From Clostridia bacterium (GTDB taxonomy: Bacteria; Bacillota; Clostridia; Christensenellales; Borkfalkiaceae), in contig JAFYWI010000002.1 in NCBI GenBank assembly GCA_017558105.1, forward strand, positions 2,152 to 66,151: DNA of 64,000 bases. Reading direction: 5' to 3'. Made by a program: the position numbers and the translations under genes. Within the stretch, counting starts at the first letter, position 1. Each line of letters begins with the position of its first letter. A model generated the notes under the pieces. That model did no database searches, was not told the DNA's origin, and was given only the letters and a program-made list of their open reading frames with translations. Shown here one piece after another: positions 12,832 to 31,098 of this stretch.

Positions 12832-12857
12832 AAAAAAAGCATAGATAACATCTATGC
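12832..12857 (-). terminator. Rho-independent terminator ending the T-box operon
   Basis: On the minus strand: gcatagat-gtt-atctatgc followed by T7, 17 nt after the ilvE stop. Confidence 0.75.
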
Positions 12858-12873
12858 TTTAATTCGTTTGTTA

Positions 12874-13935
12874 TTATATTTTATAAACCCAACCGAATTG
12901 GTCTTCAACTCTGCCCCATTGAATACCCGTTAAAGTATCGTAAAGGTGTTGAGTTAATTTACCAATTTTGCCGTTGTTAATAACGTATTTTTTGTCTTTA
13001 TAACAAAGTTCGCCAATAGGTGAAACAACTGCAGCCGTTCCACAGCCCCACGCTTCTTCTAACGTGCCTTCTTCTAATGCTTTAGCAAGTTCTTCAATGC
13101 TAATTAACCTTTCGCTTACTTTATAACCTTCTTTTCTTAATAATTCTAAAATAGATTTTCTGGTTATACCAGGCAAAATAGAGCCTGCTAGCATTGGAGT
13201 TACAACTTCGCCGTTTATTTTGAACATAACGTTCATAGCGCCAACTTCTTCAATATATTTTCTATGAACGCCATCTAACCAAAGAACTTGTGAATAGCCT
13301 TTCTTTTCTGCCCTTTCGCCAGCCCTATTGCTTGCTGCGTAGTTACCACCGCATTTTGCTTCGCCCGTGCCACCACGAACAGCCCTTACGTCTTCGTCTT
13401 CTATCATAATTCTAACAGGATTAATGCCTTCTTTATAATAACTGCCAACAGGTGAAGTTATAATTACGAAAGTTGCGTTTTTAACAGAGTGAACACCCAA
13501 AGTTTCGTCGTTACCAAACATAAATGGGCGAATATAAAGTGAAGTGCCGGTTGCAGATGGAACCCAATCTTTTTCAAAATCAATAAATTTAACTAACGCT
13601 TCTAAGAACATATCTTCTGGGATTTGTGGCAAGCACATTCTTTCTGCCGACCTATTCATCCTTCTAATATTTTCCATTGGGCGAAATAGTTGAACGTTGC
13701 CTTCTAACGTTCTATATGCTTTTAAGCCTTCAAAAATTTCTGAACCATAGTGTAAAACGGTTGAAGCTGGGTGCAAAGCAATTTTTTGGAACGGAACTAT
13801 TTTTGCATCGTGCCAACCTTTTTCTGCGTTATATTCCATAATGAACATATGGTCTGTAAATACTTTACCGAAACCTAACGTGCTTGCTTCTGGTAACGTT
13901 CCAGGGCAAGTAGTTTTAGTAATAGAAATTTCCAT
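12874..13935 (-). CDS. ilvE: Branched-chain amino acid aminotransferase
   Basis: 353 aa, class IV aminotransferase pattern (HYGSEIFEGLKAYR, LYIRPFMFG, GGTGEAKCGGNYAAS, GITR). Confidence 0.9.
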   Translation of the reverse strand: MEISITKTTCPGTLPEASTLGFGKVFTDHMFIMEYNAEKGWHDAKIVPFQKIALHPASTVLHYGSEIFEGLKAYRTLEGNVQLFRPMENIRRMNRSAERMCLPQIPEDMFLEALVKFIDFEKDWVPSATGTSLYIRPFMFGNDETLGVHSVKNATFVIITSPVGSYYKEGINPVRIMIEDEDVRAVRGGTGEAKCGGNYAASNRAGERAEKKGYSQVLWLDGVHRKYIEEVGAMNVMFKINGEVVTPMLAGSILPGITRKSILELLRKEGYKVSERLISIEELAKALEEGTLEEAWGCGTAAVVSPIGELCYKDKKYVINNGKIGKLTQHLYDTLTGIQWGRVEDQFGWVYKI

Positions 13936-13937
13936 AA

Positions 13938-14483
13938 TTATTCTCCTTTATAATCTCTGCCTAATTTTAGTGCGTTTAGGTTGATTTCTAACATATCTGC
14001 GTGTTTTGCAGAAATAACTTTCTTTAATGCGTCTATAACGCCTTGTTCGTTAGTAAAGCCGTTTGTTTCTTTTAAAACTTTACCTAATAGAATTACGTTT
14101 GCAAGTTTAGAAATGTTGTTATCTGATGCCATTTTGGTTGCAGGAATATAGTAAGCAGTTACGTCTGTTCTTTTAACTTTTCTGTCTATTAAAGAAGAAT
14201 CAACGAAAATTATGCCACCACTTTTAACTCTTTCTTCATAAAGGTCTAAAGATGGTAAGTTCATAGCAACTAAAACGTCTGGTTTTTCTACTATAGGAGA
14301 GCCTACAGCCGTGTCGCTTATAATAACCGAACAACTTGCCGTGCCACCACGCATTTCTGGGCCGTAAGATGGCAACCAACTAACGTTTTTGCCGTCTGTT
14401 AAGCCTTTGTATGCTAATACTTTACCTGAAAACAATATACCTTGACCGCCAAAACCAGCGAATAAATATTGTGTAGTACTCAT
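13938..14483 (-). CDS. 2-oxoacid:ferredoxin oxidoreductase, gamma subunit
   Basis: 181 aa with FAGFGGQGILFSGKVLA...PSYGPEMRGG, typical of OFOR gamma subunits. Confidence 0.85.
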   Translation of the reverse strand: MSTTQYLFAGFGGQGILFSGKVLAYKGLTDGKNVSWLPSYGPEMRGGTASCSVIISDTAVGSPIVEKPDVLVAMNLPSLDLYEERVKSGGIIFVDSSLIDRKVKRTDVTAYYIPATKMASDNNISKLANVILLGKVLKETNGFTNEQGVIDALKKVISAKHADMLEINLNALKLGRDYKGE

Positions 14484-14496
14484 AATTTTTTTCTCC

Positions 14497-15237
14497 TTAT
14501 TTACTAGACCTATCTTTATAAACGCCTAGTGGATAGTAAGGTATCATTTTTTCTTCTACCCATTTAAGTGCGTTAGATGGTGTTAAGCCCCAGTTTGTTG
14601 GGCAACTTGAAACAACTTCTACTAATGAAAAGCCTTTTTTGTCTACTTGGTTTTGGAAAGCCTTTTTAATTGCTTTTTTAGCATTTTTAACGTTTTTAAC
14701 GTTGTTTACTGCAACCCTTTCTAAATATTCAGGGCCGTCTAACTGAGAAAGCATTTCGCAAACTTTAATTGGGAAACCACATTCGTTTACGTTTCTGCCA
14801 TATGGTGAAGTTTGTGTAATTTGACCAGGTAGAGAAGTTGGTGCCATTTGACCACCCGTCATACCATAAATTGCGTTGTTAATGAAAATAATAGTAATAT
14901 TTTCGTTTCTTGCTGCAGAGTGTACCGTTTCTGCCATACCAATAGACGCCAAGTCGCCGTCTCCTTGGTAAGTAAATACTATATTTTCTGGGTTAGCACG
15001 TTTAACACCCGTTGCAACTGCAGGGGCTCTGCCGTGTGCGGCTTCAACCATATCGCAATTAAAATAGTCGTATGCCATAACTGAACAACCTACCGGTGCA
15101 ATACCAATAGTTTTTCCTTCAATGCCTAATTCATCTATAACTTCTGCTACTAACCTATGTACTATACCGTGAGTACAACCTGGGCAGTAGTGCATTTGAA
15201 CGTCTGCCAATGCTTTTGGTTTATCGAAAACTACCAT
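14497..15237 (-). CDS. 2-oxoacid:ferredoxin oxidoreductase, beta (TPP-binding) subunit
   Basis: 246 aa with CPGCTHG, GDGD...NNAIYGMTGGQ TPP motif. Confidence 0.85.
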   Translation of the reverse strand: MVVFDKPKALADVQMHYCPGCTHGIVHRLVAEVIDELGIEGKTIGIAPVGCSVMAYDYFNCDMVEAAHGRAPAVATGVKRANPENIVFTYQGDGDLASIGMAETVHSAARNENITIIFINNAIYGMTGGQMAPTSLPGQITQTSPYGRNVNECGFPIKVCEMLSQLDGPEYLERVAVNNVKNVKNAKKAIKKAFQNQVDKKGFSLVEVVSSCPTNWGLTPSNALKWVEEKMIPYYPLGVYKDRSSK

Positions 15238-16301
15238 TATTCGTTACCCCCTTCGTTAGCGTTTATAATTGCTTTTAGAACTTGTTCTGGTGAAGGTATC
15301 ATACCACCTGTACGATTACATAAAGTTACAGGTACTTTTCCGTTTACAGAAAGGCGAATATCTTCTATCATTTGCCCCATAGAAAGTTCTACTGATATAA
15401 TTTGTTTAACTTTATTAGAAGCATCTGCAAATGCTTTTTCTGGGAAAGGCCACAAGGTTATTGGGCGAATTAAACCAACCTTTATACCTTGTTTTCTTGC
15501 TTCGTCTATTGCGTTTCTTGCAACTCTTGCAGCAATACCGAATGCTGCAATACAAATTTCGGCATCTTCCATTAGGTATTCTTCATACCTAACTTCGTTT
15601 TGCTTAATAATTTCGTATCTTTCAAAACGTTCTATATTAGTTTTTTCTAATTGGTCTGGCTTTAAGAATAAAGAGTTTACAATATTGTGCTTTCTTCCCA
15701 TTTTAGTGCCAGTAACAGCCCAAGGTTTTTCTACTTCTTCTGCTAATTCAAAATCTAAACTAACAGGTTCCATCATTTGCCCCATAGTTCCGTCTGCTAA
15801 AATCATAGAAGTAACGCGGTACTTATCGGCAAGTTCAAAGCCTTTAACCGTTAGTTCTGCCATTTCTTGAACAGATGCAGGTGCTAAAACTATCATATGA
15901 AAATCGCCGTGTGCGCCACCCTTGGTTGCTTGAAAATAATCGCTTTGAGAAGGTTGAATACCACCAAGCCCTGGGCCACCACGTTGTACGTTTACAATTA
16001 ATGCAGGTAAATCTGCACCAGCCATATAAGAAATACCTTCGCCTTTAAGTGATATTCCTGGGCTAGATGAAGAAGTCATAACCCTTTTACCAGCGGCAGA
16101 TACGCCGTATACCATATTGATTGCGGCAATTTCGCTTTCTGCTTGTAAAAAAGTTCCACCAATCTTTGGCATTCTTTTTGCCATGTATGCTGCTATTTCC
16201 GTTTGTGGAGTTATAGGGTAACCGAAGTAGTGCCTACAACCTGCTTTTATAGCCGCTTCTGCTATTGCTTCGTTTCCTTTCATTAAAACTTTTTCGCTCA
16301 T
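15237..16301 (-). CDS. 2-oxoacid:ferredoxin oxidoreductase, alpha subunit
   Basis: 354 aa with GNEAIAEAAIKAGCRHYFGYPITPQTEI, the typical alpha N-terminus. It overlaps the beta start by 1 nt. Confidence 0.85.
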   Translation of the reverse strand: MSEKVLMKGNEAIAEAAIKAGCRHYFGYPITPQTEIAAYMAKRMPKIGGTFLQAESEIAAINMVYGVSAAGKRVMTSSSSPGISLKGEGISYMAGADLPALIVNVQRGGPGLGGIQPSQSDYFQATKGGAHGDFHMIVLAPASVQEMAELTVKGFELADKYRVTSMILADGTMGQMMEPVSLDFELAEEVEKPWAVTGTKMGRKHNIVNSLFLKPDQLEKTNIERFERYEIIKQNEVRYEEYLMEDAEICIAAFGIAARVARNAIDEARKQGIKVGLIRPITLWPFPEKAFADASNKVKQIISVELSMGQMIEDIRLSVNGKVPVTLCNRTGGMIPSPEQVLKAIINANEGGNE

Positions 16302-16309
16302 AGTAAAAC

Positions 16310-16516
16310 CTACCTTTCTACCTTAATTATGCAGTCTGGACACATAGTAGCGCAAAATGCACAACCTATGCACGCTTCCATTTTTACTGCTTCTACGGGG
16401 TGATGCCCCTTTTTATTTATTTTGTCTGTTGCTAACGCCAATACGCCTTTTGGGCATGCTTCTACGCAAAGCCCACAGCCCTTACACTTATCTACCTGAA
16501 AAGTTAAATTAGCCAT
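16310..16516 (-). CDS. 2-oxoacid:ferredoxin oxidoreductase, delta subunit (2x[4Fe-4S] ferredoxin)
   Basis: 68 aa with CKGCGLCVEACP and CIGCAFCATMCP. Confidence 0.85.
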   Translation of the reverse strand: MANLTFQVDKCKGCGLCVEACPKGVLALATDKINKKGHHPVEAVKMEACIGCAFCATMCPDCIIKVER

Positions 16517-16528
16517 AAATTTTCTCCT

Positions 16529-17191
16529 TTATATTTTCTTTTGCATCACTAACGGATACAAATTACTTACTTTATCTTTTAGTTGTTCAAATAGTTTTTC
16601 ATCTACGGTGTTTAATACCAATGGTAAACCTAATTTTTCCGCTAACTTACTAGCAAAATCTACCGAGTTCAACACGTCTTCTATAGTGGTTTCTTTTCCT
16701 AAATTAGAATTGTTTATTATACCCGTAAACTTAATTTTGCAAGCGTTTTCTATTTCGCTAAAAACTTCTATTGCGCCGTCTATATCGCTAGTGAGTGGCC
16801 TAAATTTATTTATTACGTAAAACATATCGTAATTATTTTCTTGCTTTATTTTAGGTGCAACTCTACCTAGCGCTAAAGCACCACGTTCATCTCCACCCAC
16901 GTCTAATATAGCGCGCATGCTCAAATCGTCGGTTATGCTATAAATTTCTTGTGGCAAAGCCGGAATATCTACGTTAGAGTTTGCGTAAGGAGAACAAATT
17001 AGTTTTATGCCCGCACTCTTTAGCAACTCTTCGCTATCTTTCGTTCTAAAATATGGGTTTACTATGTCGATATCGGCAATAGCAACGTTATTATATAACT
17101 TTTTTAAATCAAAAGCAAGGTTTATAGCAATATTAGTTTTGCCACTTCCGTAATGCCCCGAAACTATTGTTAATCTTTTAAAATCTATCAT
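16529..17191 (-). CDS. MinD/ParA/CooC-like (SIMIBI) P-loop NTPase of unknown role
   Basis: 220 aa with Walker A SGHYGSGKTN and a DVGGD segment, embedded in the operon with gaps of 3 and 12 nt. Confidence 0.6.
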   Translation of the reverse strand: MIDFKRLTIVSGHYGSGKTNIAINLAFDLKKLYNNVAIADIDIVNPYFRTKDSEELLKSAGIKLICSPYANSNVDIPALPQEIYSITDDLSMRAILDVGGDERGALALGRVAPKIKQENNYDMFYVINKFRPLTSDIDGAIEVFSEIENACKIKFTGIINNSNLGKETTIEDVLNSVDFASKLAEKLGLPLVLNTVDEKLFEQLKDKVSNLYPLVMQKKI

Positions 17192-17194
17192 ATT

Positions 17195-19483
17195 TTACAA
17201 TTTATTTCTTTGAATTTTACCACTGGTTGTTTTAGGCAATTCATCTCTAAATACAACAACCCTTGGGTATTTATACGGTGCAGTATGGTCTTTAACGTAT
17301 TTTTGAATTTCTTTCTTTAGTTCTTCTGTAGGAGCAGTACCTTTAGTTAATACAATACTTGCTTTTACTACTTGACCACGAACTTCATCTGGAACGGCAG
17401 AAACACCACATTCTAATACGTAAGGTAATTCCATTATTACACTTTCTATTTCAAAAGGCCCTATTCTGTAGCCAGAAGATTTAATTACGTCGTCTGCCCT
17501 ACCAACGTACCAATAGAAGCCGTCTTCATCTCGCCAAGCAACGTCGCCCGTGTGGTAGAACCCATCGTGCCAAACTTCGTTAGTTTTTTCATCGTCGTTA
17601 TAATAACCACTAAATAATCCACAAGGAATTCTGTCTTTAACGTTAATACAAATTTCGCCAGATTTACCCGTTTCTACTTCGTTGCCGTCGGCATCTAATA
17701 ACCTAACGTCGTAAAGTGGAACAGGTTTACCCATAGAACCTGGTTTGGTATCTGCGCCTTGCAAGTTACCTATAACAAGGGTTGTTTCAGTTTGACCAAA
17801 ACCTTCCATAATGCTTAAGCCCGTTGCCTTATTAAATTGCTTAAATACTTCTAAGTTTAAGGCTTCGCCAGCAGTCGTCATATGTTTTATAGAAGATAAA
17901 TCGTATTGAGAAATATCTTCTTTAACCATCATACGAAGCATTGTTGGTGGAGCGCAGAAAGTAGTAATACCATATTTTGCAAACATAGGTAAAATGTCGC
18001 TCGCGTTAAACTTTTCGAAGTCGTAGGTAAATAGCCCGCCTTCGCATAGCCATTGGCCGTACATTTTTCCCCACATTGCTTTGGCCCAACCGGTATCTGA
18101 AATAGTAAAGTGTATTCCGTTAGGGTCTACCGCGTGCCAATATTTAGCAGTATGGAAATGCCCTAATGGGTATTTGAAACTATGTTTTGCAATTTTTGGA
18201 TAGCCCGTTGTACCACTGGTGAAGAACATAATCATATCGTCGTCGCCACAAGCGGTGTTTTCATCTCTTTCAAAGTGAGTGCTAAATAAAGCACACTCTT
18301 CGTCGAAATTTCTCCAACCTTCTTTTGCTTCGCCAACTATAATTTTGTTTACTAGTTGAGGGCATTTTTTACTTGCAGTTTCTGCGTGCTTATATGCTTC
18401 CCCTTTAGAAGTACAAATAATGGTGCTAACCCCAGCAGAGTTAAACCTATATTCAAAGTCGTGGTCTAAAAGTTGGTTCATAGCAGGTATTGCTACTGCT
18501 CCAATTCTATTTAAGCCAAGTAAAGTGTACCAAAATTGGTAATCTCTACCTAAAACAAGCATAACCTTATCGCCTTTTTTAATACCTAAAGACTTAAAGT
18601 AGTTTGCTGCACGGCAAGAATATTTTTTAATATCGCTAAAAGTAAACCTTCTTTCTTCCTTTTCCCTAGAAATATGTAGTAGGGCAAGTTTATTAGGGTC
18701 TTTTTTAGCAATTTCGTCTATAATATCAAATGCAAAGTTGAATTTTTCTATATTCTTAAAGTCTATAGTTTTTAATACGCCGTTTTCATCTACGGTGGTT
18801 TCTATAAACTTTTTATAAACTCTTTCAACAGAGTCTTTTTTAACCGTTTTAACTTCTAAATTCTTATGCTTCTTTTGTAATTCTGGTATTGCTTCGCCAG
18901 TAGGGTTTAATACTATTGCGTAGAAAATACAATCTTTACCACCAACGGCTATCATTCCGTGTGGGGTTGCAGAGTTATAATAAATACTATCGCCTGCGCT
19001 TAAAACTTCTTCGTGTTCGCCAATTTTTACTTTTAATTGACCTTCTATAACGATATCTAATTCTTGCCCAGAGTGAGAAGTTACTTCTATTTCTTTGTTT
19101 TGCGCTTCTAAACTATATTCACTGCGAACGTAAAGTGGTTCTGCAATACGGTTTTTAAAAGACGGTGCTAAGTTAAAATACGTCATACCGTGTGCTTGTT
19201 CTATTTTTTGACCTTTGCCTGCACGAGTTAAAGTATAAGACCTTAAATTTGGGCTTTGACCTTCTATAATATCGGTAACGTCTACGTTAAAGGCTTGCGC
19301 ACAACGATAAATAAATGCAAAGTTTAAATCTTGCAAACCTTCTTCGCACTTAATATATTCTTCTTCAGAAACACCCGTTCTTTCTGCCATTTCTAAGGTA
19401 GAAAGACTTTCTATTTCACGAAGTTCTTTTATTCTGTTCGCCATTTCCTTGATTTTTAAATCAAGTTCTAAAAAATTACTCAT
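17195..19483 (-). CDS. XRE-HTH + cupin domain fused to an AMP-forming (medium/short-chain) acyl-CoA synthetase
   Basis: ATG 19483 with GGAGAG RBS; the track's longer ORF runs into the T-box terminator. HTH: IKELREIESLSTLEMAERTGVS. Cupin: GDSIYYNSATPHGM. ANL enzyme: FFTSGTTGYPK, GFGQTET, YHTGD, SSGYRIGPFEIES, TTSGKIQR. Confidence 0.85.
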   Translation of the reverse strand: MSNFLELDLKIKEMANRIKELREIESLSTLEMAERTGVSEEEYIKCEEGLQDLNFAFIYRCAQAFNVDVTDIIEGQSPNLRSYTLTRAGKGQKIEQAHGMTYFNLAPSFKNRIAEPLYVRSEYSLEAQNKEIEVTSHSGQELDIVIEGQLKVKIGEHEEVLSAGDSIYYNSATPHGMIAVGGKDCIFYAIVLNPTGEAIPELQKKHKNLEVKTVKKDSVERVYKKFIETTVDENGVLKTIDFKNIEKFNFAFDIIDEIAKKDPNKLALLHISREKEERRFTFSDIKKYSCRAANYFKSLGIKKGDKVMLVLGRDYQFWYTLLGLNRIGAVAIPAMNQLLDHDFEYRFNSAGVSTIICTSKGEAYKHAETASKKCPQLVNKIIVGEAKEGWRNFDEECALFSTHFERDENTACGDDDMIMFFTSGTTGYPKIAKHSFKYPLGHFHTAKYWHAVDPNGIHFTISDTGWAKAMWGKMYGQWLCEGGLFTYDFEKFNASDILPMFAKYGITTFCAPPTMLRMMVKEDISQYDLSSIKHMTTAGEALNLEVFKQFNKATGLSIMEGFGQTETTLVIGNLQGADTKPGSMGKPVPLYDVRLLDADGNEVETGKSGEICINVKDRIPCGLFSGYYNDDEKTNEVWHDGFYHTGDVAWRDEDGFYWYVGRADDVIKSSGYRIGPFEIESVIMELPYVLECGVSAVPDEVRGQVVKASIVLTKGTAPTEELKKEIQKYVKDHTAPYKYPRVVVFRDELPKTTSGKIQRNKL

Positions 19484-19499
19484 ATTTCTCTCCGTTTTG

Positions 19500-19775
19500 G
19501 AACGAAAAAAACCCGCCCCAAAGATTTTATACTTCGAGACGAGCCTACATTTAGCCCGCGGTACCACTCAAATTGCAGTTAAACTGCCACCTCAGAATCT
19601 AACAATTCTTATGCACTAACGTAGCAACTACGGGGAAGTTCTACTAAAAACTAAAAAATTTTTTTCTTCTTCCCAACTCGAAAGTTACAAACTTTAACCT
19701 TTCTGTAACGGCTTTCACCACCCGCCGTCTCTCTGAAACCTACTAAATTAAAGCACCCTTTGTCTTCGTCTTTAT
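19500..19775 (-). promoter_or_regulatory. T-box riboswitch leader (tRNA-sensing antiterminator)
   Basis: On the minus strand: AGAGAG bulge plus distal-loop GGGUGGUGAAAGCC. T-box sequence AAUUUGAGUGGUACCGCGGGC at 19554-19574. Terminator CUCGUCUCGAAG-N8-CUUUGGGGCGGG-U7 at 19505-19543. Confidence 0.85.
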
Positions 19776-19786
19776 ATTTTTTTATT

Positions 19787-19816
19787 ATTTTAACATACTT
19801 AAACTATATATGTCAA
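19787..19816 (-). promoter_or_regulatory. Sigma-A promoter upstream of the T-box leader
   Basis: On the minus strand: TTGACA, 18 nt, TAAAAT, with a TGn extended -10. Confidence 0.5.
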
Positions 19817-19867
19817 CAATTTTTAAGCCCTTATTTTTATAGTTTAAATAGTATATTATTACCTTTT

Positions 19868-30844: not shown

Positions 30845-31010
30845 TTTATGGAAAAAGCGTTTGCTACCGAAGAAGTAAAACTTTCAGGTGCCTAACTTTA
30901 GGCGAAGACCATAAATGGATAGCGTTCTGGAGAATCTCAAAATCATTGAGTACCGAAGGTGCAAAGGCTTTATATAAACAAGCCTAATCTCTCAGGTAAA
31001 AGGACAGAAT
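30845..31010 (+). promoter_or_regulatory. Tandem glycine riboswitch
   Basis: Aptamer 2: CUGGAGAA...ACCGAAGGUGCAA...CUCAGGUAAAAGGACAG. Aptamer 1 is weaker: GGAAAA...ACCGAAGAAGUAA...UUCAGGUG. It lies upstream of a sodium:alanine/glycine symporter. Confidence 0.8.
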
Positions 31011-31098
31011 TCACTTTTTTTGCGTGGAATTTTTGTAACTCACAATGTTTTAGGTTAAACGGAACGTTTAGCTTATTTTTTTATTTTAAGGAGTTACT

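Follow-up and report, generated by a model that had tools for sequence, protein, structure and literature searches.

A valine-specific T-box precedes an operon likely to make valine from isobutyrate in gut and rumen Clostridia

In the window analyzed here, a stretch of 64,000 nucleotides (nt) from contig JAFYWI010000002.1 of the Clostridia bacterium assembly GCA_017558105.1, seven close-packed genes on the minus strand lie between one promoter and one terminator (12836-19816; Table 1). In order of transcription they encode a ligase in which a helix-turn-helix (HTH) and a cupin domain are fused to an AMP-forming acyl-coenzyme A (CoA) synthetase, a P-loop nucleoside triphosphatase (NTPase), the four subunits of a 2-oxoacid:ferredoxin oxidoreductase (OFOR) and the aminotransferase IlvE. 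They are preceded by a T-box, a leader RNA of the kind that activates genes when its cognate tRNA is uncharged. Pfam and NCBIfam searches and a scan for promoter and terminator sites bear out this layout, apart from the HTH-cupin fusion, as an earlier interpretation of the bare sequence (hereafter the sequence-only reading) had described it, including its statement that no intergenic gap exceeds 13 nt: the gaps in gene order are 3, 12, 8, -1, 13 and 2 nt. We consider it likely that the unit is an operon gated by tRNA-Val that makes valine from isobutyrate and CO2.

Table 1. Features of the operon, and related elements on other contigs of the same genome. Positions refer to the window unless a contig is named.
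Feature	Position	Strand	Evidence or remark
Sigma-70-type promoter, TTGACA-18-TG-n-TAAAAT	19787-19816	-	11/12 matches, extended -10
T-box leader (Stem I, Stem II, IIA/B, Stem III, antiterminator)	19532-19775	-	RF00230
GUU of the sequence-only reading	19696-19698	-	Upper internal loop, between specifier-proximal helix and AG bulge
Specifier GUA (Val)	19686-19688	-	Followed by purine A19685, then helix CUUU 19681-19684
T-box bulge UGGUACC	19560-19566	-	RF00230 alignment, folding; UGGU pairs with tRNA A73-CCA
Leader terminator hairpin and U tract	19502-19546	-	15 bp (19546-19509), U7, -21.9 kcal/mol, z = -2.9
XRE-HTH + cupin + AMP-forming ligase (ACS-2), 762 aa	17195-19483	-	Pfam, NCBIfam
SIMIBI-class P-loop NTPase (CbiA/ParA-like), 220 aa	16529-17191	-	Domain searches, ortholog set, fold search
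OFOR delta, 68-aa ferredoxin, 2 x [4Fe-4S], two CxxCxxCxxxCP motifs	16310-16516	-	Pfam
OFOR alpha (POR_N + PFOR_II), VorB-type	15237-16301	-	NF005507
OFOR beta, binding thiamine pyrophosphate	14497-15237	-	Pfam, NCBIfam
OFOR gamma (POR domain)	13938-14483	-	Pfam, NCBIfam
IlvE, class IV type II aminotransferase	12874-13935	-	TIGR01123
Operon terminator-like hairpin, 11 bp + T run	12836-12860	-	Hairpin scan
tRNA-Val, anticodon UAC, A73	C16:106-181		
Ile (AUC) T-box	C1:37147-37386		
Ile-gated ligase	C1:37443-39710		
Ile unit with Amidohydro_2 gene	C1:37147-40524		
Leu (CUC) T-box	C1:40607-40845		Three genes follow, region to 46356

The leader has the make-up of a classical transcription-attenuation T-box. 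In an E-value search it matches the full RF00230 model (1-219) with 92.7 bits and E 7.3e-21, and it carries the conserved T-box sequence with its UGGN bulge, AAUUUGAGUGGUACCGCG. An antiterminator of -11.8 kcal/mol competes with a terminator of -21.9 kcal/mol, and CUCGUCUCG is common to both folds; the T-box that the sequence-only reading had placed here is thus confirmed. The comparison drew on the genes for this ligase in other species, 80 loci in all; 73 of their leaders were matched by pattern and 78 entered the motif count. The UGGU of the bulge is kept in all 73. The only tRNA-Val found in the genome has the anticodon UAC and the discriminator A73, and both the specifier described below and the bulge match it.

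The specifier codon is GUA, for valine. In the Rfam alignment the window's specifier columns hold GUA-A, followed by CUUU pairing with AAAG, and the same columns in the genome's five other T-boxes hold CUC-A, UGG-G, ACC-A, UUC-A and AUC-A, each with the lower helix next. GUA recurs in 72 of the 73 orthologous leaders, and the remaining one has GUC, also a valine codon; the base 3' of the specifier is a purine in 73/73, and four leaders outside the search pattern likewise read UGUAG. The helix directly above GUA has 64 distinct 5' strands, with complementarity kept. We tested its covariation without an alignment, by comparing the duplex energies of own and swapped partners, and found averages of -8.06 and -3.95 kcal/mol, respectively (Mann-Whitney p 1.7e-25). 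Because this upper helix covaries, GUA is placed in the specifier loop, between the upper helix and the GA-motif helix. The duplex test took the place of two other approaches: unconstrained minimum-free-energy folding, by which only about one leader in two showed the layout of Stem I, and MAFFT with RNAalifold on 67 Stem I sequences, which recovered the distal helix alone because the variable helices cannot be aligned by sequence. The sequence-only reading, which took GAAAG-GUU-A as the specifier region, was therefore right about the amino acid, a branched-chain one, but wrong about the triplet: the true codon lies ten bases further along.

The first gene was recognized in the sequence-only reading as an AMP-forming acyl-CoA synthetase, as its AMP-binding (256-628) and AMP-binding_C (678-756) domains attest, but the fusion to HTH_19 (16-75) and Cupin_2 (131-190), which form an N-terminal extension of ~245 aa, was overlooked. 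We place its start at ATG 19483 rather than at a GTG because the longer GTG reading frame runs through the leader terminator. The closest solved relative is MacsMa of M. acetivorans (3ETC; 607 bits, 254/520 identical positions, 49%), whose preferred substrate is 2-methylbutyrate according to a passage of PMC10455477. Residues G563, at the position of Trp416 of acetyl-CoA synthetase (Acs), and W449, at that of Trp259 in the KYW motif, the alternate pocket tryptophan of MacsMa, align to the G and W of 3ETC (by an offset that we infer for the PDB residue numbering) and are invariant in 80 + 58 sequences of the ligase and its paralog. Glycine at this site replaces the tryptophan that limits the pocket of acetyl-CoA synthetase.

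That paralog is a second HTH-cupin-ligase (~64% identity) with its own promoter and T-box, which lies immediately upstream in 56 of the 69 loci with enough upstream sequence; the specifier of its leader is AUC, for isoleucine, in 55 of these 56. In the window genome the Ile unit stands on another contig, and its ligase (755 aa) is 64% identical to that of the window. The best NCBIfam match of both paralogs is MbcS (NF047394).

It is instructive to compare the two groups position by position. Among 80 Val-gated and 58 Ile-gated ligases, taking as fixed a residue present in >=90% of each group, 16 positions are fixed differently: 4 in the catalytic domain and 12 in the HTH-cupin module. All four catalytic-domain differences lie close beside GW and GQTET, motifs lining the acyl site. 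Position 467 is A in 80/80 Val-gated ligases, G in 58/58 Ile-gated ones and G in MacsMa; position 470 is M, L and V, respectively; position 569 is M in 74/80 (L in the window protein), L and V; and position 572 is G in 80/80, A in 57/58 and A. The Ile-gated group thus has G467 and A572 in common with MacsMa, and the Val-gated group has neither. A Val-gated pocket unlike that of the 2-methylbutyrate enzyme would fit isobutyrate, which is smaller by one carbon, and the Ala/Gly swaps near the pocket offer a handle on how the two acids are discriminated.

The differences in the HTH-cupin module include (Val|Ile) N54|P, Y59|H, R60|K, A97|E, M100|I, Y102|I and L117|Y. R60|K, A97|E and Y102|I, for instance, are each invariant within their own paralog group. 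The module is therefore constrained differently in the two paralogs, and it probably functions as a sensor; the residues involved suggest recognition of paralog-specific DNA and/or ligands. A promoter-like TTGACA/-10 layout is also found directly 5' of the T-box in orthologous loci, and around these promoters we found no conserved HTH operator, only non-conserved palindromes. In the window, an 8-nt inverted repeat, AAACTATA ... TATAGTTT, surrounds the -35 hexamer (19790-19850, minus strand); palindromes at a similar place in other orthologous promoters (e.g. L033, L040) differ from it and no common sequence was found, so the window repeat may have arisen by chance.

The OFOR has the layout of a 2-oxoisovalerate:ferredoxin oxidoreductase (VOR): an alpha subunit with POR_N and PFOR_II, a beta subunit binding thiamine pyrophosphate, a POR gamma subunit and a delta subunit with two [4Fe-4S] clusters. 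The alpha subunit passes the VorB-subfamily model NF005507 (548.2 bits against a cut-off of 399). IlvE passes both TIGR01123 (408.1 against 250 bits) and NF009897 (490.9 against 307) and is single-copy in the genome (one tblastn match). The sole other OFOR in the genome is a NifJ-type pyruvate:ferredoxin oxidoreductase (PFOR) on contig C12.

The P-loop NTPase gene is present in 43/43 complete operon copies. Its structural model is confident (predicted local distance difference test 89), and a fold search with it returned generic SIMIBI relatives, the SRP54/FtsY NG domains and ATPase-type HypB, at TM scores of 0.5-0.6; a sequence search of the PDB gave no match. As a candidate role we considered an ATP-driven electron donor like NifH, which is unlikely because the cysteines are not conserved (C66 in 44/69 and C151 in 40/69 orthologs). 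Our guess is that the protein may serve in maturation or assembly.

All six downstream genes (ParA-like, Vor D/A/B/G and IlvE) follow the ligase in 43 of the 54 loci with enough sequence, and the carriers are without exception uncultured Clostridia of the gut or rumen, under the labels Christensenellaceae, Acutalibacteraceae or Oscillospiraceae. Eight loci (L012, L026, L059, L065, L076, L077, L080 and L084) have a Val (GUA) T-box and ligase without the P-loop, OFOR and IlvE genes after them.

How, then, might such a genome obtain its valine? The assembly that contains the window (1.07 Mb, 85% complete) gave no match to IlvD or to ketol-acid reductoisomerase (IlvC), while both models match 14/14 control genomes. 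Its one aconitase-family match, a 650-aa reading frame, is nearer to aconitase than to LeuC, and BrnQ was not found in the genome. The same holds more widely for IlvD, a family present in 4/43 ligase-carrying genomes versus 142/250 sampled Clostridia (57%; Fisher p 3e-9).

The genome contains six T-boxes (L001-L006), for Val, Ile, Leu, Trp (UGG), Thr (ACC) and Phe (UUC), and in this 85% complete assembly, from which some may be missing, none of the six stands before valS, ileS or leuS. Those for Val, Ile and Leu all control operons for acid activation; it is difficult to see a purpose other than amino-acid supply in three branched-chain T-boxes that each precede a separate acid-activating enzyme. 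The Leu T-box comes directly after the Ile unit and is followed by genes for a LeuA-like protein, a fusion of a xylose-isomerase-like TIM barrel to an AMP-ligase (PRK12583-type, 671 bits) and an SSF-family transporter. Relative to 3RMJ, the LeuA-like protein has lost its metal and catalytic motifs (DTTLRDGEQ has become DITLKKLAEE, and HCHND has become QVSNK) and has kept LeuA_dimer; judged by these residues it is catalytically dead. In at least 12 other genomes a pseudo-LeuA and ligase pair adjoins the Ile/Val cluster, and in every case a CUC T-box precedes the pair. The Leu-gated unit is probably the arm that leads from isovalerate to leucine. The Ile-gated ligase of the window genome is itself followed by a gene for an Amidohydro_2 protein, which adjoins the cluster in just one other locus (L046).

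Together, these observations can be assembled into a mechanism. Uncharged tRNA-Val(UAC) would pair through its anticodon with the GUA specifier in Stem I and through its free A73-CCA end with the UGGU of the T-box bulge, stabilizing the antiterminator, so that RNA polymerase would read into the seven genes. The ligase would then convert isobutyrate to isobutyryl-CoA, the VOR-type OFOR would carboxylate this reductively to 2-oxoisovalerate with CO2 and reduced ferredoxin, and IlvE would transaminate the product to valine. Isoleucine and leucine are probably made with this VOR and IlvE as well; the acyl-CoAs for these two would be provided by the Ile (AUC)- and Leu (CUC)-gated ligases on contig C1. 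The anabolic direction is favored because the T-box induces on uncharged tRNA, because AMP-forming ligases run towards acyl-CoA, and because IlvC and IlvD are absent. The sequence-only reading had proposed this succession of acid activation, VOR-type reductive carboxylation and transamination, and the Val specifier, the Ile- and Leu-gated paralogs, the absence of IlvC and IlvD and the MacsMa-like ligase all support it, although the direction and the substrates are still predictions.

Several points weigh against the synthesis of valine from isobutyrate. The gene absences are provisional because the assembly is 85% complete, and the genome has one ABC permease pair, so import of valine is possible. 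The leader falls 0.3 bits below the Rfam gathering score of 93 bits, at which a search reports no T-box here. Against MbcS (NF047394) the ligase scores 430.7 bits, below the equivalog cut-off of 850, which makes it a relative of that family and no member. The closest solved alpha subunits are those of a Pyrococcus 2-keto acid enzyme and of 2-oxoglutarate synthases; the name VorB is an annotation, and the presumed preference for branched substrates is backed by context, namely IlvE, a ligase of branched-acid type and the Val T-box. Finally, with VOR and IlvE under the Val switch alone, starvation for only isoleucine or leucine would have to be met by basal expression.

The alternative that survives best, though we regard it as unlikely, is that the genes serve lipid synthesis by providing branched acyl-CoA as a primer for branched-chain fatty acids of the membrane; the ligase would scavenge isobutyrate or 2-methylbutyrate in the manner of S. 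aureus MbcS, and IlvE and the OFOR would yield the same acyl-CoA by oxidizing valine. Branched acyl-CoA is indeed the point at which all parts meet, the reactions of OFORs can run either way, and MbcS is the best family match of both ligase paralogs, but the score reaches only 431 of the 850 bits required. A switch thrown by uncharged tRNA-Val would moreover burn valine during valine shortage, the paralogous ligases stand behind T-boxes for Ile and Leu, and the genome, like 39/43 carriers, is without IlvD and so needs another source of the amino acids.

It is very unlikely that the OFOR acts on 2-oxoglutarate or pyruvate, with a link to valine that is merely regulatory or accidental. The delta, beta and gamma subunits do match Kor/Oor-type models best, all below cut-off, and 2-oxoglutarate synthases are among the solved relatives mentioned above; against this, the alpha subunit passes the VorB model, the OFOR is clustered with IlvE and a branched-acid-type ligase in 43/54 loci, and a separate NifJ-type PFOR is at hand. 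Catabolic valine fermentation, in which IlvE and oxidative decarboxylation by VOR would end in the release of isobutyrate, is highly improbable: IlvE followed by VOR is the usual way of oxidation among Clostridia and archaea (e.g. PMC3942289), but AMP-forming ligases conserve no energy in the acid-forming direction, the operon includes no phosphotransacylase and kinase or ADP-forming synthetase, and T-box logic means induction on starvation, not on excess. Scarcely credible, finally, is a specifier other than GUA, for although the upper loop that holds the GUU has an S-turn-like AGUA...GAA, and a UGU (Cys) overlaps GUA by two bases, the sequence of that loop is not conserved (GAAAGGUUA, from the region named in the sequence-only reading, occurs in only 3/78 leaders), the conserved codon is that at 19688-19686, UUA (Leu), which that reading had allowed for, is excluded, UGU is excluded because the UGGU bulge requires the discriminator A73 and tRNA-Cys here has U73, and even the exceptional leader, with GUC, specifies valine. 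Geometry points the same way: Stem I acts as a ruler, in which the distance from specifier to distal loop must fit that from the tRNA anticodon to its elbow, and the GUU loop, ~9 bp below the distal loop, would be too close to span it.

If valine is indeed made from isobutyrate in this way, a wider picture can be drawn, which we offer tentatively, as a possibility rather than an expectation. The window operon may be one arm of a three-armed, tRNA-gated system that is the sole route to valine, isoleucine and leucine for many of the Clostridia with small genomes that live in gut and rumen; these would then have no choice but to consume branched short-chain fatty acids. Control would be double in every arm, the T-box reporting demand and a second device reporting supply or product: the HTH-cupin module on the Val and Ile ligases, with its paralog-specific invariant residues, or the dead LeuA with its intact regulatory domain beside the Leu ligase. 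The SIMIBI NTPase would be a dedicated factor for assembly or activation of the carboxylating oxidoreductase. It has been recognized for decades that branched short-chain fatty acids act as growth factors on anaerobes of the rumen and gut, and in the literature searched we found neither a set of bacterial genes for turning these acids into amino acids nor a signal that regulates the conversion. The window operon and the corresponding Ile and Leu units provide named candidates for every step, together with a control logic, and would explain how many uncultured Clostridia manage without the ilv/leu pathway. They predict that isobutyrate relieves valine auxotrophy and that these bacteria depend metabolically on proteolytic neighbours, and they suggest medium supplements for cultivation.

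The neighbouring genes are unrelated to the operon: those upstream encode a polysaccharide deacetylase and an AraC-type regulator, and downstream lies a gene for an ABC-FtsX fusion. Elsewhere in the window, a glycine riboswitch aptamer (RF00504) lies at 30917-31017 on the plus strand (59.2 bits against a gathering score of 32, E 1e-9).

As an RNA, the leader is predicted to work by an ordinary mechanism. It has in common with the class I transcriptional T-boxes of Firmicutes (RF00230; e.g. tyrS, glyQS and the ilv-leu Leu T-box of B. subtilis) the GA motif, specifier loop, AG bulge and distal loop of Stem I, as well as Stem II, IIA/B, Stem III, the antiterminator with its UGGN bulge set against an intrinsic terminator, and the control of amino-acid supply. 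It differs from them in its specifier loop, which has GGUG / GUU in place of the AGUA/GAA S-turn consensus, and in its target, which is a ligase-OFOR-aminotransferase operon and not an aminoacyl-tRNA synthetase, an ilv/leu gene or a transporter. Our literature search found no publication on a T-box before a ligase-OFOR-IlvE operon, nor on this gene set, and in the T-box surveys searched CoA ligases, ferredoxin oxidoreductases and ilvE go unmentioned. The system extends the range of known T-box targets.

The enzymes, too, have known counterparts. MacsMa has the same KYW tryptophan and the same glycine at the Acs Trp416 position as the window ligase; it lacks the N-terminal XRE-HTH and cupin extension, and the Val-gated group differs from it at all four positions near the pocket. 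The MbcS of S. aureus, a methylbutyryl-CoA synthetase, activates short branched acids and represents the closest NCBIfam family, of whose cut-off the window ligase attains about half; unlike the window ligase, MbcS feeds lipid synthesis and has neither an HTH-cupin domain nor a T-box. Archaeal and bacterial OFORs of the VOR and 2-ketoglutarate (KOR) types have the same delta-alpha-beta-gamma set, with the cofactor-binding beta subunit and the two-cluster ferredoxin delta. What sets the window operon apart from theirs is the conserved SIMIBI NTPase gene directly upstream of the subunit genes, and to our knowledge no such gene has been described beside the subunit genes of a VOR operon.

The chemistry itself has been known physiologically for decades: classical labelling work dealt with the formation of valine, isoleucine and leucine from isobutyrate, 2-methylbutyrate and isovalerate, respectively for Val, Leu and Ile precursors, by reductive carboxylation in rumen anaerobes and methanogens, and PMC2812497 cites it for M. 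ruminantium. New here are the corrected specifier for the window, the separation of the Val unit from the Ile unit in this genome, the pocket differences between the Val- and Ile-gated ligases, and the contrast in IlvD between carriers and sampled Clostridia. The predicted succession of acid, acyl-CoA, 2-oxoacid and amino acid is the same as in the rumen work, as is the gut and rumen habitat; that work is physiological, and to it the window adds a proposed, conserved set of genes and their regulators, known from sequence.

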